A stretch of DNA of 64,000 bases, taken from NCBI GenBank assembly GCA_977017645.1, contig OZ360242.1:37882001-37946000 (forward strand), given 5' to 3'. Below are positions 7,971 through 60,557 of the stretch, piece by piece (position 1 is the first letter of the stretch; every line of letters starts with the position of its first letter). The stretch comes from Torpedo marmorata (lineage: Eukaryota). The notes below the pieces were generated by a model that saw only the letters and a program-made list of their open reading frames with translations, was not told the DNA's origin and made no database searches. The position numbers and the translations under genes are program-made.

Positions 7971-8011
7971 CATAACCGACGTTTCGGGCTTGAGCCCTTC
8001 ATCAAAGTATG
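7971..8011 (-). ncRNA. Minimal type-I hammerhead ribozyme motif (U3 variant)
   Basis: Minus strand CATACT-TTGATGA-A-GGGC-TCAA-GCCC-GAAA-CG-TC-GGTTATG: core boxes, 4-bp stem II, GUC cleavage triplet, stem I CATACT/GGT(T)ATG. Confidence 0.8.
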
Positions 8012-8196
8012 AGAAAATGCCAGCAGGCATCCGAACAAAGGAGTGAGGGGGGAAGGGGGGTGGGAAAGGCAGGAGATAATAGGTGGAGAAAGGAGGGAGG
8101 GGACAGCAGCAAAGAGGGGGAGGAGGGATGGCTGGGTGGGTGGAAAAAAACAGGAAGGACAGGTGAGGGGGGAGGGGAAGGGAACAACAAGCAGGT

Positions 8197-8615
8197 TTAG
8201 TGGAAAGCAGAAAAGTCAATGTTAATGCAATCTGGCTGGAGAGTGCCGAGACGGAATATGAGATGTTGTTCCTCCAATTTGCGAGTAGTCTGGGTGGGAT
8301 AGTACATGAGGCCATGGACAGACATGTGAGTGTGGGAGTGTGACCCAGAATTGAAATGGTTGGCTACTGGGAGGTCGCTGTTGTTGCGGACGGAGAGGAG
8401 GTGCTCAGCAAAGCGGTCTCCCAATCTACGACCGGTCTCTCCAATGTATAGAAAGCCACAAAGGGAGCACCGGATGCAGTAAATAAGTCCTCTGGATGTA
8501 CAAGTGAAGTGTAGTTTCACTTGGAAGGCCTGTTTGGGGCCCTGGACCGTGGTGAGGGGGGAGGTGTGGGTGCAGGTGTTGCACCTCCTGCGGGCACAGG
8601 GGAAGGTTCCGGGGG
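8197..8615 (-). pseudogene. PLE Cys-rich linker plus GIY-YIG endonuclease (open frame, lacks RT and start)
   Basis: PGTFPCARRRCNTC...FQVKLHFTCTSRGLIYCIRCSLCGFLYIGETGRRLGDRFAEH...KLEEQHLIFRLGTLQPDCIN. The Cys linker suggests the Neptune group. Confidence 0.88.
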
Positions 8616-8678
8616 TGTGATGGGTCCCACCCCCCTTCCCCCCTCACTCCTTTGTTCGGACGCCTGCCGGCATTTTCT

Positions 8679-8719
8679 CATACTTTGATGAAGGGCTCAA
8701 GCCCGAAACGTCGGTTATG
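8679..8719 (+). ncRNA. Minimal type-I hammerhead ribozyme motif (U3 variant)
   Basis: Identical 41-mer on the plus strand; predicted cleavage after GUC at 8710-8712. Confidence 0.8.
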
Positions 8720-9959
8720 TATTTCTACTTTTGCTACATAAAATACACTGTTTGACCTGCTGAGTTCTCCAGCATTTGTGTTTTTTACTTCATCCACGGT
8801 GTCTACAGATTTTCGTGTTTTACTTCCAAAACTTAAGTTTCAGTTGAAAAATATTTAGTGCTAGGGCCATAGGATTTTATGCAAGTGTTTAATGCTGTTC
8901 TCTATCACCATGGGGGACACTCTAAACCACAGGATATTAAGGTTCAGATTTTATACTTGGCATATAAGACGACCCTGGTTATGGGGTGACATTTTTAGGG
9001 TTCAAATTCTGTCTTATACGCTGACATATACGGTATCTATATTAGTCTCTATGGTCCATGGTTCATATGCCTTGACAATAAAATGCCTGTCAAAATGCTT
9101 CTTAAACATACAGTATTATCAGCAATTGTGTGTACAGAGCCATAATATTTCAGTTTTTTAATTATGGCCATATTCCTTTTTTTAAACTGATGTGTTAATT
9201 GATGATGATGAATGTTCACCTAATTTGTAGTATTAAACAAAAAAATAATTTGGATCAAGAATCTGAATGTCTCTGCGTAGGTTTCCCTTCTATACCCCTC
9301 ATAATTTTCTATACCTCTATCAATTTTCCCCTCATTCTCTGAAGCTCCAGCAAATAAAGTACTAACCTATTCAACTTTTCCCTATAACTCAGTTCCTTGA
9401 GTCCTGGCAACATTCTTATAAATTTTCTCTGCACTCTTTCAAACTTATTGAGATATTTCCTGTAGGTATGTGACCAAAACGGCACACAATACCCCAAATT
9501 TGGCCTCAGCATAACATCCCAACTCCTGTACTCAGTACTTTGATTCACAAAGGCCAACGTGCCAAAAGCTCTCTTTTACGACCCTATCTACCTGTGACAC
9601 CACTTTCAAGGAATTGTGCATCCCATATCCCTTTGTTTGATCGCTCCTTACAGTGCCCCATTGTTTACAGTGTATGTCTTACCCTGTTTTGCCCTCCCAA
9701 AGTACAACACATCACGCTTGTTTGCATTAAATGCCATTGGCATTTTGCCAGCTGATTCTGATACCACTGAAAGCCTTCCTCGCTGTCCACTACATCCCTT
9801 ATCTTCATGTCATTAAAGGTTGGTTAACATAATTGAGATTTGTAGATTAAGAATATCAGTGCAAACTTGGATTAGAAAAAAATATGTTAAGCGCGTCATG
9901 GTAGACACTAGGCTTTCTGACTGGAGTACAAGAGTCAATGGCATTCCTCAGTGTTAAGA

Positions 9960-17134: not shown

Positions 17135-17962
17135 ATAGAAGACTGCAGGTGCTGTGATTGTAGTAAAAACACAGAGTAAATGCTGGGGGACTCAGACGGT
17201 CTCGCATCCATAGGAGGTAAAACCCTAAGCCTTTCTTCAAGGTATAAGAAAAATAACCAAAATACCTAGGCTAGCATCTCAATAAAGGCTGAGAGAAAAA
17301 GGTAGAAGAATGAGAGGGGGAGGAGTCCAGACCAACAAACAAAAGGTGTTAATTGGATATGATAAGAGGAAAGGTGAGAATTGATTTTGGCTCTGTGAAA
17401 GGAGACAGAGAGAAAATGGAAGAGCGATAGAGAGTGAGAGAGGGAGGGAGAGAAAGAGAGAGAGAAAACTATGGGAAAGGAGACAGGGGGATGAAAATGG
17501 GGGGGGGGCATTTTAATTGACTCAAATTCTTCAGTGCGAACACAAAATTATTCAACAATGATTTCATCTTTATGAATTTAATGGAAACCAGAGAAGTCGA
17601 TGTTAAAGCCATCCGGTTGGAGGGTGCCCAGATGGAAGATAAGGTATTGTTCCTGAAATTTGCAGGTGATCTTAGTCTGGCAGTGCATGAGACCATGGAC
17701 AGACATGTCAGCAAGGGAATGGGACAGGGAATTGAAATGGGTGGCCATTGGGAGATCCACGTTATTGCAGCAGACAGAGCCAAGGTGCTCAATAAAGTGA
17801 TCTCCCAGTCTGCGCCCAGTCTCTCCGATATAGAGGAGACCACAACAGGACCACCGGATGGAGTAGATGACCCCTTCAGATTCACAAGTGAAGTGTTGTT
17901 TCACTTGGAAGGACTCTTTGGGGCCCTGAAAAGTGGTGAGGGAGGAGGTATGGGCGCAGGTG
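17135..17962 (-). mobile_element. 5'-truncated Penelope-like element
   Basis: ORF 17578-17904 GVIYSIRWSCCGLLYIGETGRRLGDHFIEH...FHLGTLQPDGFNI (GIY-YIG); terminal repeat with a partly deleted hammerhead at ~17220-17246. Confidence 0.9.
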
Positions 17963-19413
17963 TGTATTGTGCCCGCCTTACTTACCAGCTACTGTATAAT
18001 CTGAAGAATGTGGGTATAAGTGGAGAAGTTGATTGATGGTCTGTTATTAGGTGATTAATGTAGCATTGTTTAATGTTGGTGGCACCATTGTTGGTGGGTT
18101 GGACTTGTGGATGTTTTCACCAGTCTAAACTACATGTGAAGTCATCCAGCCTTTTCCAGCCAAACATTTAAGTCTATGTGAGAAAGGCAACTGGTGTTTA
18201 TCTCTTCGGAAACCTAACCCTACTGCTAGTTTATTTCCAGGCTAAAGGTGTTTTTGTCCTCTTGCCCGACCAGCCCCTTGATTTTCAACTGTGACAAATA
18301 TTTACACAGTTGTGTAGTAGTATTAGGGACCTGCCCCGTTCTTGGCTGTCCATGACTGCTCCAGAGACTCACAGACCTTTGGAATGGCTTCTGGCTGCAA
18401 TGATAGAATTGAGCACTTTCCCTTTAAGAAGTGCAGGTGTGACTTCAATCAGCCTCAGTTAGATCTAACTCGTGCTGAAGCTTCCTGAAATCACTTTGCA
18501 CTAATATACAGTATGTTAATACACAAGAGCTCAATTGATGCTGATTAAACACAAAAGTTATTTCAGGCGGCATACGCACAAATTTCAGGTGGAAGCAGCA
18601 ATGGCAGGAATCCCTTGCCTCATTACTAATGTAATGCTCATTTTTCCAGTGAAATCAAATGTATGTATTTTTCTGATATTGAAACAAAGGAAACATATAG
18701 TGAGCATATTCGATTTGATATGATGCTAAGTTTTTGGAAAAGGAAAGATATTCCATACAAGCTGTTTATCTTGTATTTCTTTGTATATTTGGAGATTGGT
18801 GTTTCAGGGGTCAGAATTTTGACTTGGTGTTGTCCAGGTGAAGATTCATGAGAGAAAATATTATCACCATAAGTAATGTTGTGGTATCTGAAAATCAGTA
18901 CTGTGGTCATCAGGATACATTCATTATTAGTAAACTATATTTGCTTAAATGAAAGTTGTTTAATGCTGAATAATGGCAATTCGATAGTAAGGCAAAGTTG
19001 TGTTTGTTGATTGAAATAATTATCCAGCGAATTTTGCAGGTGTGCTCTGCAATCTTGATGAGTTGTTATTGGTCACACAATGTATGATTTCTGCTACAGT
19101 TCTATGTTATTTCTCTCTTTTATAATTAAATTTAAATGGCTTTAGCTTTATTTGTTAATTGACTCAAATTCTTCAGTGCGAACACAAAATTATTCAACAA
19201 TGATTTCATCTTTATGAATTTAATGGAAACATTCTGGATCCGAAGACCATGACAGTAACTGCAAAAATAAATTCTGTTAATTTGAAGTTTTTGTGCTCTA
19301 TTTGAGAATATATCTCCAACTTGACTCCTGATATGTGGCAAAATGAAAATGTTTTCATAAATTCACACTGCAAGATAGTGGTTGTAGCATATATAGGCGA
19401 TAAATCAAATGAA

Positions 19414-20620
19414 TATCTTGAAGAAGGGCTCAGGCCCGAATCGTCAGTTATATGTTCGAATGCTGTTTTTTGACTTCAGCTCGGCATTCAACACGATCAT
19501 ACCTCAGTACCTGATAGGGAAGTTGAGGGGGCTGGGCCTAAACTACACCCTCTGTAATTGGATCCTAGACTTCCTGACGGGAAGACCTCAGGCAGTCTGG
19601 ATTGGAAACAGCACTTCTAAGGTCATTACATTGAGCACGGGGGCTCCCCAGGGCTGTGTGCTTAGTCCATTGCTGTTCACCCTGCTGACTCATGACTGCA
19701 GCAAAACACAGCTCGAATCACATCATAAAGTTCGCCGATGATACAACCGTGGTGGGCCTTATCAGTAAGAATGATGAGTCAGCATACAGAGATGAGGTGC
19801 AGTCGCTAATGGAATGGTGCGGAAACAACAACCTGCAACTGAACGTAAACAAAACAAAAGAGTTGGTTGTCGACTTCAGAAGGGCCCGGGGGGATCATTC
19901 TCCATTGACCATGGACGGCTCTACCGTTGAGGTCGTAAAGAGTACCAAGTTTCTTGGAGTGCACTTGGCGGAGAGTCTCAGCTGGTCCCTAAACACCAGT
20001 TCCATAGTCAAGAAAGCCCAGCAGCGTCTTTACTTCCTGCGAAGACTGAGGAAAGTTCATTTCCCACCCCCTATCCTTACTACATTCTACAGGGGATGTA
20101 TTGAGAGTATTCTGAGCAATTGCATCAACGCTTGGTTTGGTAACTGTACCACCTCGGACCGAAAGACACTGCAGAGGATAGTGAGGGCAGCGGAGAAAAT
20201 TATTGGAGTCTCTCTCCCCACCATGACAGACATCTACAACACACGATGCATGAGGAAGGCTAAAAACATTGTGAAGGACTTCTCACACCCCTTTGGTAAA
20301 CTGTTTTCCCCTTTGCCATCTGGAAGGAGGTACCGAAGCACTCGGGCTCGTACGTCCAGACTATGCAACAGTTTTTTTCCCCCAAGCCATCAGGCTCCTC
20401 AATTCCTAGATATATATGTGTACTAGCATGCTATAGTTTTTTCTATTGTATTATGATATTTATGTACATCTGCCCATGGTCCTGGAGAAACGCTATCTCG
20501 TCTTACTGTGTATATGGTAATGAACGACAAATAAAGGTGACTTGACTTGATATACCTTTACCTCCTATGGATGCTGCGAGACGTGCTGAGTTCCTCCAGT
20601 ATATCTATGTTTTCACTCAA
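19414..20620 (+). mobile_element. Solo PLE terminal repeat (mutated hammerhead) split by a Rex1 insertion
   Basis: TTGAAGA-A-GGGC-TCAG-GCCC-GAAT-CGTC at 19418-19445. The repeat resumes at 20551 (TATACCTTTACCTCCTATGGATGC...GCTGAGTTCCTCCAG), matching the repeat at 17160-17220. Confidence 0.8.
19451..20550 (+). mobile_element. 5'-truncated Rex1/Babar LINE, RT domain with one frameshift
   Basis: [52 protein letters not shown]; AATAAA and (GACTT)n tail. Confidence 0.92.
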
Positions 20621-23600
20621 ACCAAATGGAATAACAATTTGACGCTTGTCGTCTTGTCCAACCCATGGAAGTTAATGGTATTCACTTTTGCATCTCTGAA
20701 GTTAAATGAATATTCCAAAAAAAATTGTTCTTTATTGGCATTTCATAAAGCAGTTCTGGCCTTTGTGCATTTGATGGTGGTTCTTCTCAGCTTTGGGATT
20801 ACAAAGTCTAATTATATATGCTGGCAGTCTTCAAAGATGTTCTTGGTTAAGTCAGTTTTCCTCACTAAATTTCAAAGGATCTGAATCAGTTGGCTTGTCT
20901 GCAGAATTTCACATAGATGTGATCATTTTTCCAATGTATTCCACATGTGCGAGCACTCATGTGAGCTTGTTGGTATGTATTATTTAAATACATTTGTCAA
21001 TGGTCATGCTGATCTCAACTCCTTGAGAATCATCTAGTGATGCTCCAAGGAGTGTCACCAACAGTGCTTTATGATTCATAAAGTTACACTTCTTATTCAT
21101 TCGTTTTGATTAGAAATGTTTCACTTTTATACCCTGTTACTGATTCCAATATTTTGCAAAGGAGCACTGTAGAATATACATATTTCATTCTTTAATGTTA
21201 TAACAATAGGTAAGTTACATTTTTTTAAATTCTTGAGTTCCAAGTCAGATGAATAAAATCTGGTTGTACAATTGTTCAGTTTGATTATAGTGATATGAAA
21301 CTGTAAAAATCTGAAAGATACAGTGAGATCACTACCTATGAAATTGATTTATTATCTATAGACTATCCCAAAGTCTATGTTTGGAATATATATTGCAATG
21401 CAATTTCATGTAACGAAATTACTATATCAGATCTTCATTATACCACCAAAATGATTCTCAGAAAATTATTAACAATGACACAAACTCTAATCATAGGTGT
21501 TGTCCTCAGTTTCTGGTGTGGGCATTATATTTGTCTATATCTGTGTATTATTGTTGAGAGATCTTTGCAGCTGCCAGCACTGGAATATTACACTTTTATG
21601 AGCATTTGGTTAGTTTATTCTTCAGTTACAGAATCTTGTACATGTTTATACTTCAGCCATTGACAGGCTGTCTCAACATAACTGGATTACCTTACATTGG
21701 TGAGGTGCTTGATTGGGTAAGTGCCAGGCTTAAATGAATTATAAGCCTCTGAAGTCTTAACTGATGCCTGTATCTTGCACTGACTGGAACCAATGTTGTT
21801 TCAACTTTTGACCAGTATAATTCAGAGTTATTACTTAAAAATGGTTAATTGTTTCTTTTATATTTTCGTGGGATATTATCCCAATCATAAACAGGAACAT
21901 GAAAATTATTTCCTCTAATATTGCATCACCCATTCATTCTACTCTTTGTGATATTACTGCCATTAATCTTCATTATGCCCCACCTTTTTAGTTGCACAGT
22001 CATTTCACATAGAAACAATTCTGATTCTTTTGAATGCAAAATTGTCCTGTTTGTTGTAATTATCGAAAAAAATATATATTATACATGTATAGGTACTTTT
22101 AATGGTTTTGGATTTGTTTGTGTGAAGGTCTGAAAACCAATTTGAGACTGCCCATACTTCAAAGTCACTCCTAATGTTATGTCCTATTGACATCATACAG
22201 TTCCTATAAACTGTGTCTAACCTTCTGAATTTATAGTGTTCCATAAATATCTGAGTAAGAAGTGTTCTAATTTTTTTATGTCACAAAGATCTTCTCGCTG
22301 GATTGGGTGTAGTACAGTGACTAAACTTCTTCCACGCCACAATACTGTGAATGCAAAATGATGACAAAAATAACACCAGCAAAAGAAAGTTTAGATTGTT
22401 ACACAGTTGCTTGGTACTATTTGTTATCCAAGTGATAAAACTGCAAGTCACTAAAAATAAAACACATTTGAACTTGCCATCTGTCAGTCAAATAATAATG
22501 GCATATACACAGTTCTAATAACTCAATCTCTGACAACCTAAGTAGATTTTGGTTCTGTTATAGGTATGTTAATGGAATTTTTTCTCAATATATAATGTTC
22601 AAGAACAGTTGATTCATCAATATAATTTATAAATATTCTTCTTAAATTATAACTTCTCTTCTATCAAGCTGTCTGAAATGCTACCAGCAGGATTCTTTGT
22701 GGCTGTCTTTGAAATATTTAATTTATTCCACATTTTAACATTTGTGTTTCTTCTTATGTTTCCTAAGCAGCAATTAATTATTTATCAGCTAATAGATTTA
22801 GCATGCTTGCTGGCCTAGCCTTTTTGCTATTAATGCTCCAGGGATTAAATGGGTTGAAGTACAGTAGTTTGCATTGCTTGAAAATATTTTCCCCAAGCAT
22901 GTTTTCCTGGATTCTCATTCTCTGGCTCATACTCCAGAGGAGAGACTGCCTACCAACAGATGCAGAAACGCAAATGTGTCCTCATCTCACTATTCATTAG
23001 ATTCTTCTCTTCAATTTATAGTTTAAAAACCACCAAAGGTTTCACTCTCTAAAATAAGTATCATTCATTTCCAAAAATGATCATTCAACAGCTTCTCCTG
23101 CTCTGTTCTTGCATTAATATGTCTATGGGAGATCAGTCGGTGAAAGTCTCAAGGGTTAGAAAGATGGGTCTTCTTTCATCTCTTCTCACATTGCTTCCAA
23201 CATTTTATGTAAATTACTTCCCAAAATTGCTCTTCCTCTTTCACTGAAATTCAGCCCATGGGGCCTCCAGTCTATTCTCCATTCTTCTTAGTCATCCTAC
23301 AATCCTTCTTTGGATTATCTGATGACAGGATTCATAAATCTTGTCACCACTGATCAAATCCTACTCCCTTTGCAACTCAGAGTGATGTTTGACAGATTTT
23401 CAGCGTTCCAGAAAATCTTGGACCTCTACCAATCCACCTGTTATTTCTGCCAGTGCTACACTGTTAATCTCATTTATCAGATTTATAGCTACCGGTAGTC
23501 TTGAATTATCTTGCTGGATGGGAAGCTGTTAATATACTGTAATATATTGTTTGTTATAAAGGATCTCTGAATAGGAACACCAGGATTTCTGAAGACAATA

Positions 23601-28010: not shown

Positions 28011-29717
28011 AATTGAATAGGTCATGTGTACCAAGATGGAGTAGAAAGTTTTGTTTTGCATCTTATCCAGGCAAATCAAATATACTTGTCAAATGTACTT
28101 GTTTTGTATAATCCAAGTGGCAAATTGTGACAGATAGTTTGTGCTTCAGAATCAGACATAACGTGGCAACTTAACACTTTAATTACAGTAATTAATTAAT
28201 TGTCTTTAGTATTGCACTTAGGGACATGAGTATCCAGGTGGTGGTGTTGGGGGAAGAAAGTGATGGAACAAGGCTGATTCAACATGGTGCAAATTCATTT
28301 AAACTATATCTTTTCACATTTCGCTTGTGAGTCCTTTTATCTACATTTATAATACAAACTACATCTGTAAACTTGCCACACTGTAATTAAACCCACCTTC
28401 CACTTTGGGATGACAGTATTGCAGGTTGTAGGGTATAATTACAGTATGGCAGGTATTTGTTTGCATCTAAAATGAAACATTGCAGTAATTTAAATTTCTT
28501 CATTGTGCAGACACCTCCCACCACAGCCTCCACCCCCACCATCACCAACAGAAGCTCTTGGAATGCCTGGACTACAAGTGATGTGCATTTCCGTCATGTA
28601 AATGAGAGGAAATACATCAGACGATCTATCTCCCATGGTTATCTTATGAACCTCCAACCATTGCTTATGTCTGAAGGAAATGACTAGACCTTGTCATTGG
28701 GGGAGCACAGTAGTTGAGAGCATAGCTCCAATGGAGGTGCAGTAGAAAGTCTGTTTTTGTTTGATTACTCAACATAAAAGTTAAGGCACGGTTGGCGTCC
28801 TCCAATGTGTGTATTCCATATTGTTAACAAATGCATCCAGAGATACATTATCCCGTTTTCCACTTTCTGTGTTCTGTCTCTTATTTGCCATTAGTCAGTA
28901 CTGAAAGTTTAATGGCTGGAGCACACTAGATCCATGAAATGGATCCCTATTGTAAAAACCCGATTGTCTTCACTGGGGAAAAATATTTTAACTGGCTCAC
29001 TTACATCCTCGCCTAAACTCGAGGAAAATATAATTTTGCAAAGAGTTTGATACTTTTTGGCTTTAAGACTATTAGGCACTGTTTTGAATTTCTGTCAAAC
29101 AAAACATATAAGGATTGGAACATCAAGATGGTGGGTGTTTACCAGGAAGTGTTGTTCCGAGGCTTCATTTAATAACCATCGCATCTTATTAGTGAATAAA
29201 AATGTTCTCTGAAATTGATAAAGTACATCATAGAATTATTCTGTTGGCATAAAATAACTGCTAAATAAGCTTTCCATTTTTGGGATGTGAATAATTTCAC
29301 TTTGGTTATTTTTGTCTTTCCCATCGCTGGCTTGTTCTCATAATTGTAATGGAAGCTTCGAACTTCAAAAGTGAAATGGTTCACTAGTGAAAGAGTCGCA
29401 AATTAAATAACCTCACTGAGCATCCATTCTGATTTCTGTTGATTATACCTACCGTTGCACAATATGCCAGTGATGGAGAACTGAGTCTATGGAGTTCAAT
29501 AGTGGGAACAAAAACCAAGTGAGAATAGTGTGGCCTCCTCTACATCGGTGAGACCAAAAGCAAATTGGGTGACCGCTTCATTGAGCATTTAATATCTGTG
29601 GGTCCAAACTTGAGATTCCTGGTGCCAGCCTTTTTAACTCCTCTAACCATTCCCACATTGACATGTCTGACTTTGTCAGTGTGAGGCAAATGTAAACTTC
29701 AAGAATTACACATCATT

Positions 29718-32700
29718 ATTTTTATTATCTTCACAGGTTCAAGATAGAATAACGCAAGCATCTTATAAAGCGAGAATAATTTCTGATCATTCACCTTTAT
29801 TAATATCTTGTATAATTCCGGAAAAAGAAAAAACTGTATATAGTTGGAGATGTAATTCTTCTTTATTAAAAAGAAAAGATTTCTGTGATTATATGAGAAG
29901 GGAAATTCAGGAATTTTTACAAATAAATTCTAATTCTACTAATAATAAATTTATTATATGGGAAGCTTTAAAAGCTTATTTAAGAGGTCAAATAATAATT
30001 TATTCAGCAAAAATTAAGAAGGATTATCTTAGGGAGGTAAACAACTAAGAGAAGGAAATTGAGTGTTTGGAAAAGGTTTACAAAAATAGATCAATTCAAA
30101 AAAGGAATAATCTAGTTGGGAAAAAATTACATTATAATTTATTACAAACATACAAAATGGAAAAATTAATTGAAAGAACTAAACAAAGATATTATGAGTT
30201 AGGGGAAAGAGCACATAAAGTTTTGGCATGGCAATTAATAAAAGATCAAGCTTCTAGAACTATAAATGCTATTAGGAAAAAGAATTCTAGGGAAATAACT
30301 TATAAACCTCGAGAAATAAATGATTCTTTTAAGGATTATTATTTAAATTTATATAAATCTCAGATTGATCAAGATAACTCTAAAATTAATAGATTTTTAT
30401 CTAAAATTACATTACCTAAACTAAATATTCAAAGTAGAGAAGCTTTAGATTTACCTTTCTCAATGAGGGAAGTTAATGAAGTTCTTACTTCCTTAACGAG
30501 TGGTAAATCTCCAGGTGATGATGGATTTCCAGCAGAATTTTATAAAGAGTTTAAAGATTTATTGATACCTCCATATATGGATGTATTAAATCAAATTACG
30601 GAAACCCATTCATTACCAGACACATTTTTAAATACAATAATTACAGTTATACCTAAAAAAGATAGAGATGTATTGAAAACTGAATCATATAGACCTATTT
30701 CATTGTTAAATGTAGATTATAAGATAATGGCAAAAATTTTAGCAAATAGAATTGCTAATTATTTACCAGATTTAATTCATGTAGATCAAACTGGTTTTAT
30801 TAAGAATAGATATTCAAAAGATAATATAGCTAGATTAATTAGTTTAATTAATTTTCAAAAAAAGAAGGAAGATTTACCATTAGTATTAACGCTAGACGCC
30901 GAAAAGGCTTTTGATAGATTAGAGTGGAATTTTTTATTTAAGGTATTGGAGAAATTTGGTTTTGGAATTACATTTATTAATTGGATTAAAACTATATATA
31001 AAGAACCATATGCTAAAGTAGTTACAAATGGACAAATTTCTTCAAGATTTCCTTTGACTCGATCTACTAGTCAAGGATGTCCTTTGTCACCAGCGTTATT
31101 TATTTTGGCGATAGAACCTTTGGCAGAATTAGTTAGAAAAGATCCTAAAATAGTTGGTATTAAAGTTGGAATGGAAGAACATAAAATTAGTTTATTTGCA
31201 GATGATGTATTGATATATATGATAAAATCTACTACATCTTTAGTACAATTGTCTGCGTTATTGAGAGAATATGGGGAAATATCTGGATATAAAATTAATT
31301 CTGATAAAAGTGAAATTATGGCATTATCACAAGGGGATTATAGTAAATGTAAAGAAATTATACAATTTAAATGGGCAAAGGAAGGAATTAAATATTTGGG
31401 AATAAGGATTGACACAAAATTGGCTAATTTATATAAAATTAAATTATTTACCATTATTTGTGAAAATAAAAAAGGATTTAGAAAATTGGAAAGATTTACC
31501 TATAACTTTAATGGGAAGAGTAAATTGTATTAAAATGAATGTTTTTCCAAGAATTCAATATCTTTTTCAATCAATTCCTTATGAAATTCCTCAAAAATCT
31601 TTCAAAGATTTAAATTCAATTATTAGAAAATTTTTATGGAAAGGAAAGTTAGCAAGAGTAGGTATGGAAAAATTAACTTGGAATTATGAAATGGGTGGTT
31701 TACAACTTCATAATTTCCAAAATTATTATAAAGCAGCTCAATTAAAATTTGTTAATGAATTTTTTGATTCAACTAAATCTTCTGCTTGGATTAAAATAGA
31801 ATTAAATAATATAGGAGAAGATTCCAAAGAAGAAGTTATTTATAAATGGGATTCTAAATTAATATCAACAAGAAAGAAAAATTCTCCTATTCTTTAACAT
31901 TTGTTAGAAATATGGAATAAGACGGATAAGGAAATAGGAGGAAAAGGATTGATTTCTTCAAGGATGCCTTTATATCAAAATTGACTTATTCCATTTACTA
32001 TTAATAATCAATTATTTAAAATTTGGTTTCAAAAAGGAATTAAGAAAATAAATGATTGTTTTGAAGCTGGGAAATTTATTACTTTTCAAAGAATGAAAGA
32101 TACATTTAATATATTAGATAATACACTTTTTGCTTATTATCAAATTAGAGCTTTTCTGATTGAGAAATTAGGTTATGCTTTGATTTTACCAAGACAGAAT
32201 GAATTAGAATTATTAGTTACTAAAGGAGATGTCAATAAATTTATTTCTCAAATGTATAAATTGTTTCAGAGGAAAATTCCTAAAGTAGGAATTCATAAAT
32301 CAAGATTAAAATGGGAATTAGATTTGAATGTAACAATAGATGAAAATCATTGGAAAGAATTATGTAAATTAAGTATGACGAAGATTATTAATGTTGGATA
32401 TAGATTAGTACAATACAATTTTTTTCATCAATTATATTTAACACCTAAAAAACTAAAGAAATTTAATCCGACATTATCAGGTTTATGTTTTAGATGTAAT
32501 AAAGAGGAAGGTTCTTTTGTACATTCTACATGGTTTTGTCCAAAAGTTTATGATTTCTGGTTGAAAGTTAAAAAAATTTTAGATAAAGTATTTAAGATTA
32601 CATTTCCAATGGATCCTATGATATTTTTGTTTGGAGATATTAGAAAATTTAGTATTAAGATGAAATTAAATATGTATCAAATAGATTTTCTGCAAATTGC

Positions 32701-33152
32701 TTTAGCTGTTTCAAAGAAATGTATTGCTATTACTTGGAAATCTGATCTCGATTTAGGGTTAGAAAGATGGCATGCAGAACTTCATTCATGTATACCACTT
32801 GAAAAAATTACTTATAACTTACGGAATAAATATCATTTATATTTAAAAATATGGAGCCCATATATGAAAGTTGTTGGCTTAAGGATTTGAAGATCTCTGG
32901 ACATTGGATCTACTGGCTACCTGACCTCCATAATAGAATTAGTTTATAGATGTATTTATTAGATTGACATTCTCCTTACCTTATCCTTTTCTCTTTCTTC
33001 TCTTTTTTTTAATTATTTTATTAGATTAGTGGGGAGGGGATGGAGGGAGGGGGAGGGAGGGGGGGTGAAAATGTATCACAAGTATTTGATAATTTCATAT
33101 TTTATTTTATGTATTTTGTGATTTAAAATTTTTAAATAAAATAATTAAAAAA
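29718..33152 (+). mobile_element. 5'-truncated L1 LINE: ORF2 (end of APE, RT, Cys domain), 3' UTR, poly-A, 17-bp TSD
   Basis: SDHSPL, KSPGDDGF, YRPISLLN, LDAEKAFD, QGCPLSP, LFADD, CFRC..H..WFC; a few stops and frameshifts; TSD AAGAATTACACATCATT at 29701-29717 and 33153-33169. Confidence 0.95.
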
Positions 33153-34540: not shown

Positions 34541-36253
34541 TTTTTATTTAAATTTTTTTTGAATATTTTATTTGTATTTTTTTTAAGCCAAACATATTAT
34601 CAATAACAAAAATAATACATCATCGAATATAATATTCGTATGCTGACTATTATACTAAAAAACAACAAGAGTACAAACAAAGAAAACCCACCCACCCAGT
34701 TCCCCCTAAAAGAAAGAAAGGAGAAGAATGGAATTAGAAAAGGTTGAAGCAGAAAAGGAAAGAAGACGTTGGAGGTTCGTCGTCCACCCCGCAGGCTTAA
34801 ATTACTTGGCTTACTCAGATTTTTAAAGAGGAAACGGACATAGGTCCTGAAGGCGAGGGGGGTCCTAGCTATAGATTTACAAGTTGAGATCTTATTTAAG
34901 GGATAAATTGGGCCCATTAATGACCTTACCGAAATGCAGTGATGTAAACCATATAACAATTACAGCACGGAAACAGGCCATTAGGCCCTTCCAGTCCGCA
35001 CCGAACCAAAACATTCCTATCTAGTCCCACCTACCTGCACCCTGCCCATAACCCTCCACTTCCCTCTCATCCATATACTTGTCCAACTTTTTCTTAAATA
35101 CTAAAATTGACTCTGCCGCCACTACTTCTCCCGGAAGCTCATTCCACACCGCTACCACTCTCTGAGTAAAGAAGTTCCCCCTCATGTTACCTCTAAACCT
35201 CTGCCCCTTAACTCTTAGCTCATGTCCTCTTGTTTCAATCTCTCCTATTCTTAATGGAAATAGTCTATCCACATCCACTCTGTCTATCCCTTTCATAATT
35301 TTAAATACCTCTATCAAATCCCCTCTCAACCTTCTACGCTCCAAAGAATAAAGACCTAATCTGCTCAATCTCTCCTTGTACTCTAAATTCTTAAACCCAG
35401 GTAACATTCTGGTAAACCTTCTCTGCACTCTCTCCACTTTGTTGATATCCTTCCTATAATTTGGCGACCAGAACTGCACACAGAACTCTAAATTAGGCCG
35501 CACCAAAGCCTTATATAATCTCAACATCACTTCCCAACTCCTATATTCTATGCATTGATTGATGAAGGCCAGCATACTAAAAGCCTTCTTCACCACCGTA
35601 TTCACATGAGTGGAAACTTTGATCCGAAAGGGGATCACAAAGAAGTTTATTTCAGCAGCCTATCTTTTACTACATAAACGAACAGCTAAACAGGGGCTAC
35701 ATAGATCTAGACAGAGATGGGAATCAGACTTGTATATAATAATTGATGAACAAAACTGGTCCGACTTATGTCGGGACAGTATGAAAAATACAATAAATGT
35801 GAGATACAGACTGGTGCAATATAATTTTTTGCACCAGTTATATCTCATGCCGCAAAAATTGAATAAATTTAAATCAGAAATATCAGATAAATGTTTTAGA
35901 TGCAGCAAAGAAATAGGAACGTTTTTACATTTAATCTGGTCATGCCCCAAGGTAAAACCTTTCTGGACGGACTTAGGGAAATTTTTAGAACAAATTACAG
36001 AAATTCTGTTCCCACAATGCCCAGAATTATTTCTATTGGGCAATATCTCCGGCGTAAGACCTAAGATGTGGCTGTCAAAATTTCAAATAAAATTTGTAGA
36101 GATCGCATTGGCGGTGGCCAGGAAATATATAGCGGTCACATGGAAGTCTGATTCCCATCTAGGTATGACAAGATGGAATGAGGAAATGTACAGCTGTGTT
36201 CCCCTTGAGAAGATTACCTACAATCTTAGAAATAGATATGATATATTTTTAAA
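34541..36253 (-). mobile_element. L1 insertion with 5' inversion (twin-priming structure)
   Basis: TSD GAATTCCAGCTAATTT at 34525-34540 and 36254-36269; minus-strand A-rich tail and 3' UTR at 34541-~34877; plus-strand ORF2 C-terminus at ~34878-36253, homologous to 32140-32860. Confidence 0.85.
34947..35620 (-). mobile_element. Young CR1 LINE 3' fragment inserted in the inverted L1
   Basis: Uninterrupted ORF VKKAFSMLAFI...LYKALVRPNLEFCVQFWSP...ERRRLRGDLIEVFKIM; CR1 3' UTR GGCCTGTTTCCGTGCTGTA. Confidence 0.93.
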
Positions 36254-37111
36254 GAATTCCAGCTAATTTGAAATAGTCACTCACTGAAAATTACATAGCC
36301 TATTTGTTACTTGCTGCTTGCTGGCCTGCATGTAGATATAATCCATGTTCATCTGCAGTTTGATATTGTGAATGGAGTTGAATACCTTAAGAAAGAACAA
36401 AATTCTCCAATATATCTGTAGAGAATAGTTGAGCCAAGAAAATTTCCCTGAAGAATTTCGCGGTCACGTTGAAAGCTACGATCAATGGGCATGACCAAGG
36501 CATTTTTCTTTGCAGGATTTGTTATAAGCTCATAGCTTGTAGTTGTAGAATAGCTTGAGTTGGGAGCTGCAGAATCTGGTGCAACAGTGGGATTTTTCTC
36601 ATGGCCTACAGCCCATGTTGTGTCCAGGTAACACTCCATTCATTAAAATTTAAAATTTCCGTTGATCTGTATGAAATCACGGAGAGCCTCTGCTGAACAA
36701 AGCTTTCAAGATCCACTCAGGTTCATATTTGATATCCAAGTATATTGCTTTTTGGATATGTTCCTGGAGGTCAGGTTACTAACAACTATTCTTTGAAGTA
36801 AAAGTTTATATTTCTGGCACTCAGCTATAGGGAACACTTTATGCAAGTACTAATCCTATCTCTCAGTATCCCAAGCTCTTCCACTGACCTTCTGTAACCT
36901 AACAAAGGTATGAACCTTAACACAAGGAGTTGTGAAAACAAGTAAAATGCCCTTTTTTGTCCTGTTACTTCTCTGTGCAGTGTTCAATTAATAATGGAAG
37001 TGCTAAAAAATATTTAAACAAAAGTAAAATATATATATATTTTTTTTCCAAACACAAGATTTGAATTAATATTATCTTTGCATTTGTCACATTCTCTATT
37101 TTGTACTACTG

Positions 37112-41680: not shown

Positions 41681-42558
41681 AGATTTCAGATTTCAGATTT
41701 ATTGTCAGAGTACATACATGATATCACATACAACCCTGAGATTCTTTTTCCTGCAGGCGAAATAGAATTACCACTTATTGGTAGTGCAAAAAGACTGTAC
41801 ACAACTATACATGTAAACAAATAAAGAACTGTAAACAGATAACGAATGTAAACAAACTGACTGCAATACAGAGAGAATTTAAAAAATCAATAAAGTGCAC
41901 AAGTAAGAGTCCTTAAATGAGTCCCTGATTGAGTTTGTTGTTGAGGAGTCTGATGGTGGAGGGGTAACAGCTGTTCCTGAACCTGGTGGTGCGAGTCTTG
42001 TAGTACCTATACCTCTTTCCTCATGGCAGTAGCGAGAACAGAGCGTGTGCTGGGTGGTGAGGGTTTTTGATAATTGCTGTTGCTCTCCAACGGCAGCGTT
42101 CCTTGTAAATCTTCTCGATAGTGGGGAGGGTTTTGCTTGTGATGACCTGGTCTTTGTCCACTACCTTTTGGAGGGCTTTACGCTCAGATGGATTGGTGTC
42201 CCCATACCAGACCGTGATGCAGCCGGTCAGCACACTTTCCACTACACATCTGTAGAAATTTGCCAGGATTTCTGGTGACATACCAAACCTCCGCAACCTC
42301 ATGAGGAAGTGGAGGCGCTGACGTGCTTTCTTCACGATGCCATTAGTGTGTTGGTTCCAGGTAAGATTCCCTGAAATAGTGACTCCCAAGAACTTAAATT
42401 TGCTCACCCTCTCCACTTCTGATCCCCCAATGATCACTGGATTGTATACCTCTGGCTTTTCCTTCCTGAAGTCAACAATCAGCTCCTTAGTTTTGGTGAC
42501 ATTGAGTGCAAGGTTGTTGTTGGTGCACCATTCAGCCAAGTTTTCAATCTCCCTCCTG
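41681..42558 (-). mobile_element. Rex1-type LINE 3' fragment
   Basis: EWCTNNNLALNVTKTKELIVDFRK...FKFLGV...KARQRLHFL; (CTGAAAT)n tail. Confidence 0.92.
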
Positions 42559-45018
42559 TATTGTAGTATTGTAGTCAGTATTGTAGTCTGTTTTTAGGAT
42601 CAATGAATTGTTTGAGGTGAAAGGTGAACAGTAATGCTCCTGAGTCCTCTGGAGGAGCACGCAAAAGCACTTTGAATGTTGGCACTTCAAATAACTCCAT
42701 TTCAGGGAAACAGTTTTAGTGAAAGACATTTGTACTGTGAGCAAATAACTGAGGTTCGTGAGGTTGAGTCATACAAGAGATGAATATTGAGCATTGGCTT
42801 ATTGTTGATAGTATTTGTGGAGTCATTGTTTCTTCTGCTTACAAAAATCTTGCTGATGAGACAGCTGATGAACTTCCTGCCAGCAATTATAGGCAAGAAA
42901 AGACATAATATTGTCCTATGCTGGGTTAAGACCATTTTCAATCATGTAGCGCGTTCTTTTCCAGTGATGTGAGAAGAAATCTCCAGGCAATGAAAATGTA
43001 GCCAATTTTTTTACAAACTCAAAAAGAGTGATCGAGAGAATTAATGTAAAAATGGACCCAGTGATGCTATAAAACAGATGCATGTCCTCCAGATTAACCC
43101 ATAATGCAATAAAGTCGGCTGGAAAAGCTGTCTAATTCAGTTTAATGTGGTTACAAAAAACTGTTAACAGAGTTTGTGTTAATGGATTTTGGAAAAAAAA
43201 AGTGACCATTTGGTGCACTTAGATATGAAATACAATGCTGATGGCTCTTCTTGTAAAATTGTCCAGCTATGTATTTGAATCACACATTTGTCATTAACAT
43301 CATGTCACGGTGCACGCATGCTCATTCATACGTAAAGCACTCAACCAACCAACTCATCCATGCAATAAATGAATAAATAACACAATACCACTCACTTTGT
43401 GTATTATGACACAAAGGAACATAATTGCAAATGCATTTTAACGTAGTATCTGCTGGTGTACTTGATCTTTCCCTTTTCAAGATTATGAATGACTGTAGCA
43501 CCAACCAATTGGAGCTAATTTGACTTATTGGGGATAATTTGGATTTTGATTTGTGGTCTAAAATGGGTGTAATTGATTCTGCCAGTCAATAAAAATGAAA
43601 AGCAAGAGAGAGGTATTGCACTTTTGAGTACAATATGTCATTCTGGTTAAACTGTCCTCAATTATACCAGCCAGGCCCTTTTCATTTTTGTGATGGGTTG
43701 CTTTTTGGATACTTCAGCCAGAAAGAGTTTAAATTCCTTTCATTGCAATCTTTGTTGCTACGGCAGTGTGTGTTTGTTGAAATCTACCGCAAAAGTTCAA
43801 GTCAATGGAGCCATATTTTTGAAGTGAACTGCAATTGAGACGTACTGCCCCATGTGTTCAATGCATGCAACCAAGGAATCATTTCAGCCCCCATCCTACG
43901 AAGTTCGAATGCAGCAAAGAAAGAGGCCAAAAGCTGAAGCTGACGCCACCCTGAGCTTTTAAGGGTCATTTGAAACTTCAGGTCAAAGAGAATTGAATAT
44001 TTCAATCATTATATAATACAGATTCTTTGGCATAGATGAATTGTTTAAAAAAAAAAGCAATGTCACCCAGCTTGTACCATCAAAATAGAGCACTAAACAT
44101 ACCTCTTTGATGTAAACTTAATTATTTTCAATTGATTTGATGTGTAAATGGCCAGCAATTGCTTTGAATTGCACACTACATTACCTTCCTCTTCTGATCC
44201 TGGTCAAAATGTTAAAACTGTTTGCATAGGGAGTTCCCCTGCCACAATGCGGACTTTGACCACCATGAATATTGCTTGCACCAACCTCACTTGGGAAAAA
44301 TTGGACCCAGCATCGTCAATATGCCACACTGAGAGAATGGAGCTTCAATTCATCCTCTAAGTACCATCCATACATCAGTAAATACATCCCACTGACATTT
44401 TCTCTTGATTTGTAGGGCAGTAACTTCTTATATTTGTACAAGAGGGAATCTGTTAACACCAGTACTGTCATTACAAACTTGACACCTTCCCCCTCAAGAT
44501 GTAATATCATCACTTCTCCTCCTATCTTTTTTTCTCTATCTGGCCCACTGCTTCAATCACTGTCATTATCACAGGGAAGCATTCCCCAAAGCAAATCCTT
44601 TCATAATCATAAATAGATAACAAAACAGAATAGCAAAAATCCTTTAGCATATTGTCATATGTGTTGTTTCACAAATGTAACTTGTCCATTACTATTTGAC
44701 TGTCATGCTTAAAAAGAAAGAAAAAAAAATGAGGCAACATTGTCTTTGTTTCATTGAATATCACAGGCGAGGTTGCATATATTTCAAAGAGAAATTGAAA
44801 TCTAATTTTTGGTTTGAGTAGAAGCATTGGAAGAACAGCAAGTGATAAATTGCAGAATTTTAAAAAACACCATCTCTTCATCAGAGTTGATGAAGGACCA
44901 CTAAAAGTTCATTTTTAATTGTCTCCATTTTTTTTTGTTTACTTGTTTTAACAATACTTTTTTCACTTTTGTGTTAAGTTACAGATTCAGTCAAACATTG
45001 AAGCATCATTGTAAGAGG

Positions 45019-45134
45019 CATTTTCTCATACTTTGAAGAAGGGCTCAAGCCTGAAACGTCGGTTATGTATTTCTACCTTTGCTACATAAAAGACACTGTT
45101 TGACCTGCTGAGTTCTCCAGCTTTTGTGTTTTTT
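45019..45134 (+). mobile_element. 116-bp solo PLE terminal repeat with 11-bp TSD
   Basis: Near-identical to 8671-8787; ATTGTAAGAGG at 45008-45018 and 45135-45145. Confidence 0.92.
45027..45067 (+). ncRNA. Minimal hammerhead ribozyme motif (U3 variant)
   Basis: CATACT-TTGAAGA-A-GGGC-TCAA-GCCT-GAAA-CG-TC-GGTTATG; differs from the 8679 copy only at variable N7 and a G-C to G-U pair. Confidence 0.78.
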
Positions 45135-46879
45135 ATTGTAAGAGGTCTGTTGGGCAGTAATAGAACATATGCCTGATTCAGCTTGAGCTGCCCAGAGGAA
45201 AGTCTGGCTTAAAATGGTGGCAAAGAGGGAATGAAGTGTTCAGTCAACCATATTGTTCCTAACACCACCACCACCATCCCATTTCTGGCAGATAAAATAG
45301 CCTCCAATGTTTTGGAGCAGCAAAGGTGCTTACAAGGTACATCATCTTCAGTGTAAATAAACTGCCCCATGACTCTGGCTAAAGTAACCAATCTATCTTT
45401 TTGACATGAAGCCAATTTCACAATGCCTTAAATTAAAAACTGTCTCATTGTACTTCAATGACTCTCATTCATAAAAAGAAAAGAAAATACTGCTGGACTC
45501 AACTTATTTTTAGTGAACATGTTCGATTTTGGAAACTGCACCAAATAGTCACTTGAAGATAGAATACAACATGGAAATTTACTAAGACCATTCATTTGTA
45601 TCCTGGAACCATCTCTGAGTAACAAAAAGTATGAAATACTCCTTTGAATTTTTTTAATATTTAAGGGGACATCTGTTGGCATCTGGGGACTTGACAAAAA
45701 ATGCTGCAGACTGCTCTGATCATATCGAAAGTCCACAAAGTGCGCTGCAATAAACTGTGCCTGCTTTCCCTGACGTCTGGCTGCTGATTCAATGGGTTCC
45801 TCACTAGCAATCTTTAGCAGCCTGTCCAAATGAGAAGCGGCAGCATCAACAGCAATGTCAACCCGTGGGTCAATAGTGTCACTAGTCTCTGCACAACGAA
45901 AGATGTTATTGCCCAGAATGAGGCAATATCTCAACAATGCAAATGTGCCCAGAATTGATTACAGCTATAAGAAGTAATCAAATATTTTTAAAAATCCAAA
46001 CTCACAATATTTGTGTCTAAAATTTAACACTTTCCTGCTGGGTTAAGATGTGTGAGTAGCATGGCTAAGTGTCTCCTAAGGGGCTGCAGACTAGGTGCTG
46101 AAAGGCTGCGCCATTCCCAAGTTTGCACAGATGTCCCTGATGAATCAGGAGAAGTTCTTATCCTGAATGATCATAAACAGCAGTCCAGGGCCAACTGAAG
46201 GAGGAACCTGGGATGGCTGTCTGTGGGGCACGAATGAGTGTGTTGTCCAAGAGGTTGCAACGAGAGGTGAGTTGGTGCCCACATGAAGAGGTAGCAGTGT
46301 CTTAAACCCATAGACCACACAATCTGACAGAGGACTGCATGGGCAATGGTGTGAAGATCTGCTGGCATTTAAACTGCTACACCAATGTTTCAATCTTCAA
46401 ACCTAGGGCTGAGCTCACTGACCTACCCAAAATCTCGTGGACCTGGCCTTCATTTTTCTCCTCAGAGTTGGTTTTTCTGCAAAATTGGAACAGGAGGTTG
46501 GGGGTCCCAACAAAACACTCACCATCTCAGATGTGATCCTCATGAACTTTAGAGGCAGCACAGGTATACGGACAGCCCTCACTTCCATGAGAATCTCTGT
46601 GCTGTCTGTTGGGACTTAATCCATTAACCTAATCTGCTCTTGCTTTATGAGGTGGTGCAATAATATCAACAAACAGTGGTCTTTATCATCATTCTCCTCC
46701 TCCTCTCCCTCTCTTTCCACATTGTGTTCTGCACTTCCTCTAATTCTGCCCTTCCTCATGGCCTAACATCATAGCCCATTAAGACAAACAGCAGATCGTT
46801 GTACTTGTACGCCTGGCCAAATTGTCTTAATGTTCATGCAACAGCAAAGCTAGCACTGAGGGTTTACTGTTGATTGTTG

Positions 46880-48500
46880 CAAAGAGATCATACCAAAGTG
46901 ATCTCTGGGGGATCAGAGGTGGAGAGGGTGAGCAAATTTAAATTCTTTGGAGTCACTATCTTGGAGGACTTTTCCTGGATCCAACACACTAATGTCATCG
47001 TGAGGAACGCACATTAGCACCTCTGCTTCCTTAGGAGTTTGTGGAGTTTCTGTATGATATCGGATACCCTGGCAAACGTCTACAGATGTGCAGTGGAAAG
47101 TGTGCTGACTGGCTGCATCAGTGCACCAAGACCACTGAGTGGAAAGCCCTGCAAAAGGTAATGGACATAGCCCAGGACATCACAGGTAAAACGCTGCCCA
47201 CCATCAAGAAAATCGACATGGAATGCTGACGTCGGAGAGCAGCAGCAATCATCAACAATCCACACCATCCAGCACATGCTCTGTTCTCACTACTGCCATC
47301 AGGAAAGAGATCTAGGTGCCACAAGACTCATTCTACCAAGTTCAGGAACTGCTGCTACCCCTCCACCATCAGATTCCTAAGGAATAAACTCAATCAGAGA
47401 CTTATTTAAGGACTCTTACTTTGCACATTATTTATTACTGAATATTTTGTATTACACAGTCAGTTTGTTTACATTTCTTTCTTTGTTTACATTTCTCTCT
47501 GCTCTACTCCCTCTACACCCATGACTGTGTGGCCAGGCATAATTCAAATGTCATCTACAAATTTGCCGATGACACCATGGTCATCGGCAGAATCACAGAT
47601 GGCAATGAGGAAGCGTACAGGAGTGAGATAGATCAGCTGGTTGAGTGGTGTCACAGTGATCACCTTGCACTCAACGTTATCAAAATTAAGGAACTGATTG
47701 TGGACTTCAGGAGGGGGAGATCAGGAGAACACAAACCAGTCCTCATCAAGAGGTCAGCAGTGGAAAGGGTTAAGAACTTAAATTTCCTGGGTGTCAATAT
47801 CTCTAAAGAAATATCCTGGGTTTCCATCTCCATGCAATCACAAAGAAAGCTTGTCAGTGGCTATACTTCGTGAGGAGTTTGATGAGATTTGGTACAGTAT
47901 GTCACCAAAGACTCTTGCAAATTTCTACAGGTGTACTGTGGAGAGCATTCTGACTTGTTGCATTGCTGTCTAGTATGGAGGTGCAAATGCACAAGACAGG
48001 AAAAGACTACAAAGTGTTGTGAACTGGGCATCAGTCTTCACTCCATTGAGGAAATCTACAAGAGGCAGAGTCTCAAGAAAGCAGCCTCTATCTTCATGGA
48101 CCCTCTTCACACTGCTACCATCAGGAACGAGGCACAGGAGCCTGAAGACGAACACCCAATGGTATAAAAACAGTTTCTTCCCCGCTGACATCAGCTATCT
48201 GAATGGACAATGAACCACAGACACTACCTCACTTTCTCTTCTTTTTGCACTAATTTTTGTTTTTAAATGCAATTTACACCTATATTTGCACCTGCAATGC
48301 TGCCACAAAACAACAAATTTTGTGACATATTCATGACAATAAATTCTGATTCTGTTTTCGTATACGTATCTTTTCTTGTGCACAGTTTTTTGCACTACTG
48401 ATAAGCAGAAATTCTGCCTGATTTGCAGGAAAAAGAATCTCAGGGTTGTATGTGATGTCATGTATGAACTCTGACAATAAATCTGAACTTTGAACTTTGA
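46880..48500 (+). mobile_element. Rex1 fragment (46880-47500, 48353-48500) interrupted by a second Rex1-subfamily fragment (47500-48352)
   Basis: YKFADDTMVIG, KELIVDFRR, LANFYRCTVESIL; two distinct 3' UTRs and tails. Confidence 0.8.
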
Positions 48501-56671: not shown

Positions 56672-57413
56672 CAGGTAGTCCTCATCTTACGACCTACGTG
56701 AGTTACGTCCACCCGCACATACGACCGAATTTTTTTTTGTATTAAAAGTATTGTATATATGTTGAGATTCTTTATTACAGTATTTACTTGAAGTTCATAA
56801 AAATCGCATCGCGAAAAAAGTGGGGTCGCACTAAATCGGGGTTTCAATAAAGCATTATAACAGTTGAAATTAAAACACAGATCAATGGCCGTCTTCGTTA
56901 CCCATAATCCCCCACGCAGCTGGAACTGCTCTGCGTTTCCATGGCGCTGGTACTGGCAGAGCGGTTCCAGCTGCGAGGGGGATTATGGTAATGAAGACGG
57001 CCATTGATCTGTGTTTTAATTTCGAAGACATGTTCAGGGCGTCGGGAGCTCCGGTGGGTGGTTGGCCGAGGCATCGGGAGCTCGCATGGGTGGGCGGTCG
57101 GGGCGTTTGGAGCTCCGTTGAGCGGGTGGCTTGTGCGTCGGGAGCTCGGATGGGCAGGCGGTCGGGGCGTCGGGAGCTCGAATGGGTGAGCTGATCCATA
57201 AGGATAGGTTTCCCTTGAATTAGCTAGGACCAGAATCCAAGTAAATACACCAACTAGAGCTGGAAACAAGGTTTTAAACTGAAAATAATGTTGATGGTGG
57301 TGGTAGTGGGGGAGGTAGCAGATATGCGCGGCAGGATGAATCTGACTTACGACCAATCTGAGTTACGACCACTCCTTCGGTCCCAATTACGGTCGTAAGT
57401 CGAGGACTACCTG
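56672..57413. mobile_element. Tigger-type MITE with internal hairpin and GC-rich repeats
   Basis: TA|CAGGTAGTCCTCATCTTACGACC...GGTCGTAAGTCGAGGACTACCTG|TA. Confidence 0.92.
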
Positions 57414-60058: not shown

Positions 60059-60557
60059 GAAAAATCCCATTGCATTATTTTGAAAAGAGAGCCCATGGGT
60101 TATCCTCAGTCGTCAACATTCCTGGCCAACAGTTACCCTATAATCTATATTTCTTTTATACAGATTATATTATTATTATCATATTACTCTGTTAGCATTT
60201 GTATGTAAATTGGCTGCTGTATTTCTTGCATTTCAACAGTAACTACATTTTATATCAGATGAGATAAGGACATTTAATATATTCCTGCTTTGCTTTATCT
60301 AACCAGGTGCAGTTAGTAATTGGGATAGATGTACAACTTCCTGAGGAAGGAGCTTGCTGAATAAATGTTCTCCTAAAGTGTCCACTGATACCACCCAAAA
60401 TCTTGGATCAGACACTAAAATATTTTGAGCAGTTTGCACACTATTTGGAAACTTGTCTTTGCAAAAGGAATGGAAGTTTGGATTGCCATTGCGGTGACTT
60501 GCTCAGGTGCCAATTAAGTTGTGATATCAACAGGGTGGGTCCCATGCTTTTTAAATA

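Follow-up and report, generated by a model that had tools for sequence, protein, structure and literature searches.

A short hammerhead-bearing insertion in Torpedo marmorata reads as a solo pseudo-long terminal repeat of a young Penelope-like element

Endonuclease-bearing (EN+) Penelope-like elements (PLEs) of the Neptune/Nematis group, as far as the available portions of PMC8557442 and PMC3846280 describe them, possess one open reading frame (ORF) that includes reverse transcriptase (RT) and C-terminal GIY-YIG endonuclease (EN) domains, a CX4CxxC linker, and a CCHH motif. Their copies form partial tandems, carry an inverted 5′ arm and a 30-40-bp tail at one end, lie between target-site duplications (TSDs) of about 8-17 bp, and also occur as solo pseudo-long terminal repeats (pLTRs). 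All of these features were shared by the family of a 116-bp hammerhead-bearing insertion that we analyzed in Torpedo marmorata (window 45019-45134, + strand; the window is the whole 64,000-nt stretch under analysis, positions 37,882,001 to 37,946,000 of contig OZ360242.1, assembly GCA_977017645.1). Truncation is described as variable in that group, whereas the 5′ ends of the copies studied here had a mode just before the hammerhead. The insertion is best read as a solo pLTR derived from an autonomous PLE of Neptune type, neither a retrozyme nor a separate ribozyme element, and it is one of thousands of ordinary Penelope end-pieces. A preliminary description of the window had offered two origins, an extreme truncation of a PLE or a minimal retrozyme-like unit. 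The truncation stood, made from the RNA of the autonomous element by its RT and endonuclease, with the amendment that its length is not random; the retrozyme-like unit did not.

Two further systems are close. The Poseidon element of Anolis (PAc; Frangieh et al. 2024, PMC11167929, available in part) shares with the present family two internal start sites that define the tail, an ATT-rich target, extension of both strands, and a hammerhead that is dispensable for insertion. It belongs to a different clade, and its ORF starts at stem II, whereas here the ORF starts ~80 nt after the repeat; the accessible text on PAc does not deal with solo repeats or with genomic run-off products. Internal RT initiation at the two sites and hammerhead-independent insertion were both obtained in vitro, where catalytic mutants of the hammerhead inserted normally, and the later insertion steps were left unvalidated in that paper. 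Metazoan non-LTR retrozymes, in the accessible parts of PMC7229834 and bioRxiv 10.64898/2026.07.22.740005, share with the insertion its noncoding nature, a type I hammerhead, a relation to PLEs, and long TSDs. They have at least two tandem hammerhead units and a lineage separate from the autonomous element, whereas the insertion has one unit, one hammerhead, and no lineage of its own.

The insertion lies between two perfect 11-bp copies of ATTGTAAGAGG (5′ copy, 45008-45018; 3′ copy, 45135-45145; both + strand), starts 8 nt before stem I of the hammerhead (45027), includes 67 nt downstream of stem I, and contains no part of the element ORF when full-length copies are taken as the reference, in agreement with the preliminary description. 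The chance of an exact 11-mer at both insert ends is ~4^-11 per position pair by arithmetic, and the duplication is far beyond chance; TSDs of the family are usually 8-17 bp. When repeat positions are counted from the first base after the final T run (0 = window 45135), the insertion spans -116 to -1 and the hammerhead -108 to -68, with the predicted cut between -75 and -74. The 5′ junction may be placed at -116 or -118, because the final two bases of the 5′ TSD copy (GG) also match the element. The insertion ends at the first of two family 3′ ends and has no tail. Its 3′ TSD copy starts with ATT, the motif most often cut in vitro by the Anolis PLE protein (PMC11167929, available in part). No empty allele of the site was found in the assembly, in which the right flank is single-copy. 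It had also been suggested that such units scatter self-cleavage sites through host introns. This was unsupported: the motif is a hammerhead of the minimal dimer type whose core has U3.G8, and a Pfam scan of 82 of the 293 non-repeat window ORFs gave only two weak matches, below the cut-off, and no convincing host exon.

Two short motifs of the repeat had 31,407 and 21,971 exact matches in the 6.2-Gb assembly, and their reversed controls had 0. Full-length copies consisted of a 3,852-bp unit with an intact RT/GIY-YIG ORF of 1,159 amino acids (aa), and the units of their partial tandems were 99.9-100% identical. The ORF stops ~300 nt upstream of the repeat and starts ~80 nt downstream of it, which in tandem copies places the repeat at the front of the transcript as well. 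Matches of the full-length protein to RVT_1 (E = 1.8e-6) and to GIY-YIG (E = 5.5e-4) fell slightly short of the Pfam cut-off; the protein contained the motifs DKG, YIDD, and LIYCI..YIGET, a CX4CxxC linker between RT and EN (CARRRCNTC at aa 1027), and a CCHH-type motif. According to the available part of PMC8557442, a CX2-5CxxC zinc finger between RT and EN together with a CCHH motif marks Neptune and Nematis, and the finger is absent in Penelope and Poseidon. By motif, the parent family would be Neptune-type; Poseidon was dropped as a label given the linker. The EN+ PLE characters were found throughout: identity of the repeat to that of copies with RT and C-terminal GIY-YIG, partial tandems, inverted arms, an optional tail, and TSDs. 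When both arms of an inverted twin were sampled, the ~40-nt tail was present on exactly one arm in 26 of 26 pairs (including window 7905-8826), a pattern that would fit separate RT start sites for the two cut DNA strands. One locus considered as a single full-length element (L068) was discarded as such, being two separate truncated copies.

Copies were sampled as the first 100 places listed per motif plus incidental partners, within the first 22 Mb of one contig and not as a random draw; the first motif was blind to copies <67 nt. The 148 distinct copies comprised 66 simple copies, 58 arms of inverted twins, and 24 complex copies. Over -116 to -1, the insertion had 0 mismatches to 14 sampled copies, 13 of which were 403-3,236 nt long. 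When 40 short copies were compared with 77 long copies (20 middle-length and 14 <92-nt copies left out), the between-minus-within distance was 0.002 (permutation test, P = 0.35), that is, there was no clustering by length, and 39 of the 40 short copies had a long copy among their nearest neighbors. Among simple copies, TSDs of at least 8 bp flanked 9 of the 17 short ones (median, 12 bp) and 19 of the 44 longer ones (median, 13 bp). The separate subfamily that had been named as a mark of an independent element thus failed to appear: short and long copies shared haplotypes, and the insertion was identical to long copies.

Simple copies had continuous lengths, from 33 to 3,236 nt, but 17 of 66 ended within the 32 nt from -92 to -123, against 16 over the 477 nt that follow (P = 1.6e-12). 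Only one of the 66 ended at -68 to -91, and 46 extended past -123. The same zone (-92 to -123) contained the ends of 20 of the 58 inverted-twin arms. The length distribution, proposed earlier as a way to tell an independent element from simple truncation, therefore answered both ways, with a strong mode at -92 to -123 but continuous lengths around it. Solo lengths are not quite those of plain random truncation. Because the mode is located upstream of the predicted cut, the short solos are not cleavage products.

A pattern built to detect pieces that restart within the repeat, and which read-through would also have matched, had 136 matches genome-wide; the 30 loci fetched represented 23 events (22 parsed by script and one, L297, read by eye). 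In 23 of 23 events, later pieces reached at most 3 nt past the 5′ end of the first piece (-108 to -126). The stop position was fixed within an event and varied between events, and in L238/239, L194, and L242 the pieces within one insertion shared their 5′ base and differed in their 3′ ends. A mere pause would often be read through, because 46 of the 66 simple copies pass the zone on the first pass. None of 29 near-full-length copies stopped at -92 to -123 on the second pass through the repeat (Fisher test, P = 0.0012). Because re-primed pieces showed no read-through and near-full-length copies no second-pass stop, the zone is likely a physical RNA 5′ end. We consider it probable, at roughly two in three, that the length of the insertion was set by the 5′ end of the element RNA, with RT primed in the repeat near the RNA front and running off the template.

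Under this reading, the GIY-YIG endonuclease would have cut the target with an 11-nt stagger, as the TSD indicates, and RT would have primed at an internal start site, the first of a fixed pair. Two 3′ ends were seen in genomic copies; only with the Anolis element has RT been shown, in vitro, to start at such sites (PMC11167929, available in part). The cDNA would then have ended at the template 5′ end, 92-126 nt upstream, as the re-primed copies indicate, and would have been joined to the other target end through the 2-nt GG microhomology, which is present in the sequence and whose place in the order of steps we infer. Transcription may begin at this RNA end, or the end may result from trimming, with protection by the hammerhead or by a bound protein. 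An initiator-like motif, TCATACT, coincides with the first base of stem I at -109 to -107. Self-cleavage is not needed to explain the insertion. Transcription in D. virilis starts in the pLTR, as reported in the available part of PMC2377424.

Several points weigh against an RNA end as the cause. The end is deduced from DNA alone, and an obstacle fixed on individual RNA molecules would give the same picture. The second pass stopped at -98 in L193 and at -85 in L249, despite first passes that had extended to -175 and -185, and L286 has two pieces, starting at -235 and -115; some stopping near the hammerhead is therefore independent of an RNA end. Run-off also predicts full-length copies that start at -92 to -123, of which there were 0 among the 29 and one (L309, -120) in another search. 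As full-length starts in the zone are near-absent, a second template class (longer, multi-unit, or circular) must be assumed. A circular template is proposed in the accessible part of PMC4209133, and we infer that long copies come from such a second class, circular or multi-unit. The 29 near-full-length copies belong mostly to the youngest lineage, in which the mode may be weaker (one short to six long), and two of their loci (L092 and L094) are possibly one locus assembled twice. No consistent extra G, the mark of a cap, was seen at junctions by eye, and the restriction of the 148 copies to 22 Mb of one contig applies to this reading as well.

The hammerhead is a minimal type I motif (45027-45067, + strand) with stem I CAUACU/GGU(U)AUG, a UUGAAGA core with U3.G8, a 4-bp stem II, GAAA, a palindromic ACGU, and a predicted cut at 45060/45061. 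Stems I and II, GAAA, the NUH triplet, and the palindromic stub of stem III were all present, and 10 of 10 named pairs were Watson-Crick or G.U, with pair 10.1-11.1 being G.U. The core was UUGAAGA and not CUGANGA; U3 replaced C3 in 126 of 127 sampled copies, and the 3-8 core pair (U3.G8) is not Watson-Crick. The minimal hammerhead ribozyme of PMC4209133, in the portion of that paper at hand, shares with the insertion an extra base between 9 and 10.1, the G10.1 pair, no loop 3, the palindromic 15.2-16.2 for dimer formation, and an occurrence mostly as single motifs in truncated copies. It has C3-G8 and U3-A8, whereas the insert family has U3.G8. The free fold was no more stable than shuffles (z = -0.2 and 0.33). 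Rfam at the gathering score gave no match in the window, and the strict CUGANGA core pattern had 12 matches in the window against 7.65 expected, none of them at the insertion. Our literature search for activity of U3.G8 hammerheads found no paper.

Pieces ending exactly at the predicted cut (-75) amounted to nine events among 28 matches. The control position -72 had 62 matches, and the 30 fetched contained three clear and four ambiguous true breaks, the remainder being small indels. Counted by eye among the 100 matches listed of 136, ~7 events were at or compatible with -75 and ~14 at -72/-71. Re-priming points were scattered over -53 to -78, and only 2 of 23 were at -75/-74. Breaks at -75 were dropped as proof of self-cleavage, since true breaks also occurred at the -72 control and the unbiased profile was not clearly enriched. 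Hammerhead cleavage in vivo may still occur.

Three side observations concern the cut site. A full-length copy (L312:4115-8084) has its 5′ junction at -75 to -72, compatible with the predicted cut, as a single case among 29. A tiny insertion (L231-L233; G000:C25, 63.341 Mb) consists of three 25-nt pieces (-99 to -75) and a shorter stub, and each piece ends at the predicted cut and is followed by a short A-rich run. A recurrent ~13-nt deletion directly after the predicted cut (L222/L223, L234/L235, L241, and L245-L247) removes the 3′ strand of stem I, in short and long insertions alike.

The main rival to run-off at an RNA end is structure-induced truncation, in which RT, copying a long template, would tend to halt directly behind the stem II hairpin or where protein is bound to the hammerhead, with the cDNA joined to the target afterwards. 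It would account for the beginning of the mode at the 5′ arm of stem II (-92 to -94), for the 20 of 58 twin arms that end in the zone, many of them joined via the stem II palindrome, and for the stops of L193 and L249 at -98 and -85 on a template that continued. We nevertheless regard it as unlikely, because second passes in near-full-length copies did not stop in the zone (0 of 29), 11 hammerhead copies were read through without a stop in a 363-bp array described below, and the stop was fixed within each event and differed between events in all 23 re-primed cases. If the insertion had arisen, like solo LTRs, by recombination of one pLTR of a full-length copy with the other, there would have to be full-length copies that begin at -92 to -123, and none of the 29 does. 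Such recombination would leave a single repeat within an intact TSD, as is seen here, and recombination or deletion is proposed for rotifer solo pLTRs in the available part of PMC3846280; the re-primed pieces would remain unexplained, and the lack of mutations in the insertion relative to its long relatives implies that little time has passed. This origin is very doubtful.

An independent, nonautonomous retrozyme- or SINE-like unit of ~116 bp, transcribed from solos and recopied by the PLE enzyme, is already largely refuted and is similarly improbable. Short copies had no private variants and did not cluster, their 5′ ends were spread over 32 nt instead of being fixed, and the insertion is a monomer with one hammerhead, active retrozymes being defined by at least two tandem units. 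Nor does it contain the ORF-start sequence, which the Anolis protein requires on its RNA (PMC11167929, available in part). The length mode exists, and non-LTR retrozymes related to pLTRs are reported in the accessible part of bioRxiv 10.64898/2026.07.22.740005; the TSDs of at least 8 bp at 9 of 17 short solos also speak for such a unit, but long copies do not differ in their TSDs (found at 19 of 44; median, 13 bp). That the insertion is a reverse-transcribed product of hammerhead self-cleavage is extremely improbable. The nine events with a piece ending exactly at -75 and the start of L312 at -75 to -72 would fit, but the insertion holds the whole hammerhead and extends 42 nt beyond the cut, and its 5′ end refutes this origin. 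Moreover, 0 of 66 simple copies start at -74 (nearest, -71), true breaks occur at -72, re-priming is spread over -53 to -78 (2 of 23 at -75/-74), and the core is U3.G8.

Short products running from the 5′ end of the repeat into ORF-start sequence (+180 to +219) made up 6 of the 29 events behind 41 matches: L193 (-175/+181), L194 (-110/+182), L207 (-205/+219), L213 (-184/+180), L316 (-210/+219), and L325 (-176/+188). These end-to-end products can come only from the pLTR-ORF junction, which also served as template in the in vitro work on the Anolis element (PMC11167929, available in part). The far ends of short end-to-end products in L193, L194, L207, L213/L214, L316, L238/L239, L249, and L286 clustered at +180 to +230 of this junction, which suggests that a short RNA, or a fragment protected by protein, has a recurring 3′ end. 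L325:1299-5207 (G000:C5, about 20.311-20.315 Mb) contains head-to-head arrays of a 363-bp unit (-176 to +188) with one hammerhead each, the layout of metazoan non-LTR retrozymes in the sources cited above. This 3.9-kb pair has 4.1 and 6.6 unit copies, a number that rests on the assembly; the copies are 100% identical, the TSD is 14 bp, and the arms start at +39 and +2. The unit junction had 11 occurrences across both arms and none elsewhere in the genome. The available part of bioRxiv 10.64898/2026.07.22.740005 suggests local amplification for tandem units, whereas this array looks like one insertion. It is likely a retrozyme-like multimer made in one insertion, and the simplest cause is a circular or precisely end-joined RNA copied at that time.

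We tentatively propose, at somewhat short of even odds, that the family makes a strong-stop-like PLE cDNA that is primed on the front repeat and runs off its 5′ end, giving a solo, stutters, or, via a short end-joined RNA, an array, and that long copies and tandems come from an endless template (circular or multi-unit). Solo pLTRs, tails, inverted arms, pLTR promoters, and a PLE origin of retrozymes are already published. In a literature search with thin coverage of subscription journals and older Penelope papers, we found neither a run-off origin of solos nor one-step array formation, and neither a 5′-end mode just before the hammerhead nor evidence for such a mode as an RNA end.

Related copies were present elsewhere in the window. 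A 5′-truncated copy of the same family (7905-8630, - strand, 726 nt) contains the end of the GIY-YIG ORF (E = 4.6e-4, below the cut-off); its pLTR is 96.6% identical to the insertion and its protein 94% identical to the full-length protein. The inverted second arm of the same insertion (8628-8826, + strand), which carries the ~40-nt tail, is 95.8% identical to the insertion, and a 16-bp TSD flanks the pair (7889-7904 and 8823-8838). The preliminary description had noted a second solo repeat at ~19414. Although its start at the hammerhead was confirmed, this repeat is a member of an older subfamily with a further changed core (GAAT for GAAA) and is split by a long interspersed nuclear element (LINE) fragment into a 5′ half (19413-19453, + strand) and a 3′ half (20550-20617, + strand). 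The LINE fragment is ~1.1 kb long (about 19454-20549) and has an RVT_1 match, and a decayed TSD was recognized by eye (about 19402-19415 and 20619-20633). Older PLE subfamily copies, also with U3 cores, are located at 362-1049 (- strand) and about 17140-17988 (- strand), and the 76-bp stretch at 17513-17588 recurs as an exact inverted copy at 19155-19230. Several LINE-type elements have left fragments at 29671-32890 (+ strand; with a long RT-like ORF at 30049-31533), 35021-36266, 41681-42593, and 46897-48494. A weak PA28_N Pfam match at 60302-60502 (- strand; E = 0.002, below the cut-off, 23 residues) may be chance or a decayed exon, and a 158-bp imperfect palindrome at 56866-57023 (87.5% self-complementary) is followed by short tandem repeats.

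The insertion is thus a known kind of insertion, and its family is useful for the mechanism of pseudo-LTRs, of tandems, and of the route from PLEs to retrozymes. According to the available part of PMC2377424, pLTR and tandem formation in PLEs has no obvious mechanism. The very young copies described here have readable intermediates, namely a predicted RNA 5′ end at -92 to -126, a putative recurring RNA 3′ end at +180 to +219, and an array probably made in one step, each of which is a coordinate directly testable by 5′- or 3′-end sequencing or by a published in vitro assay. If the scheme of run-off on the front repeat is true, retrozymes would arise again and again as one-step by-products when Penelope elements transpose.

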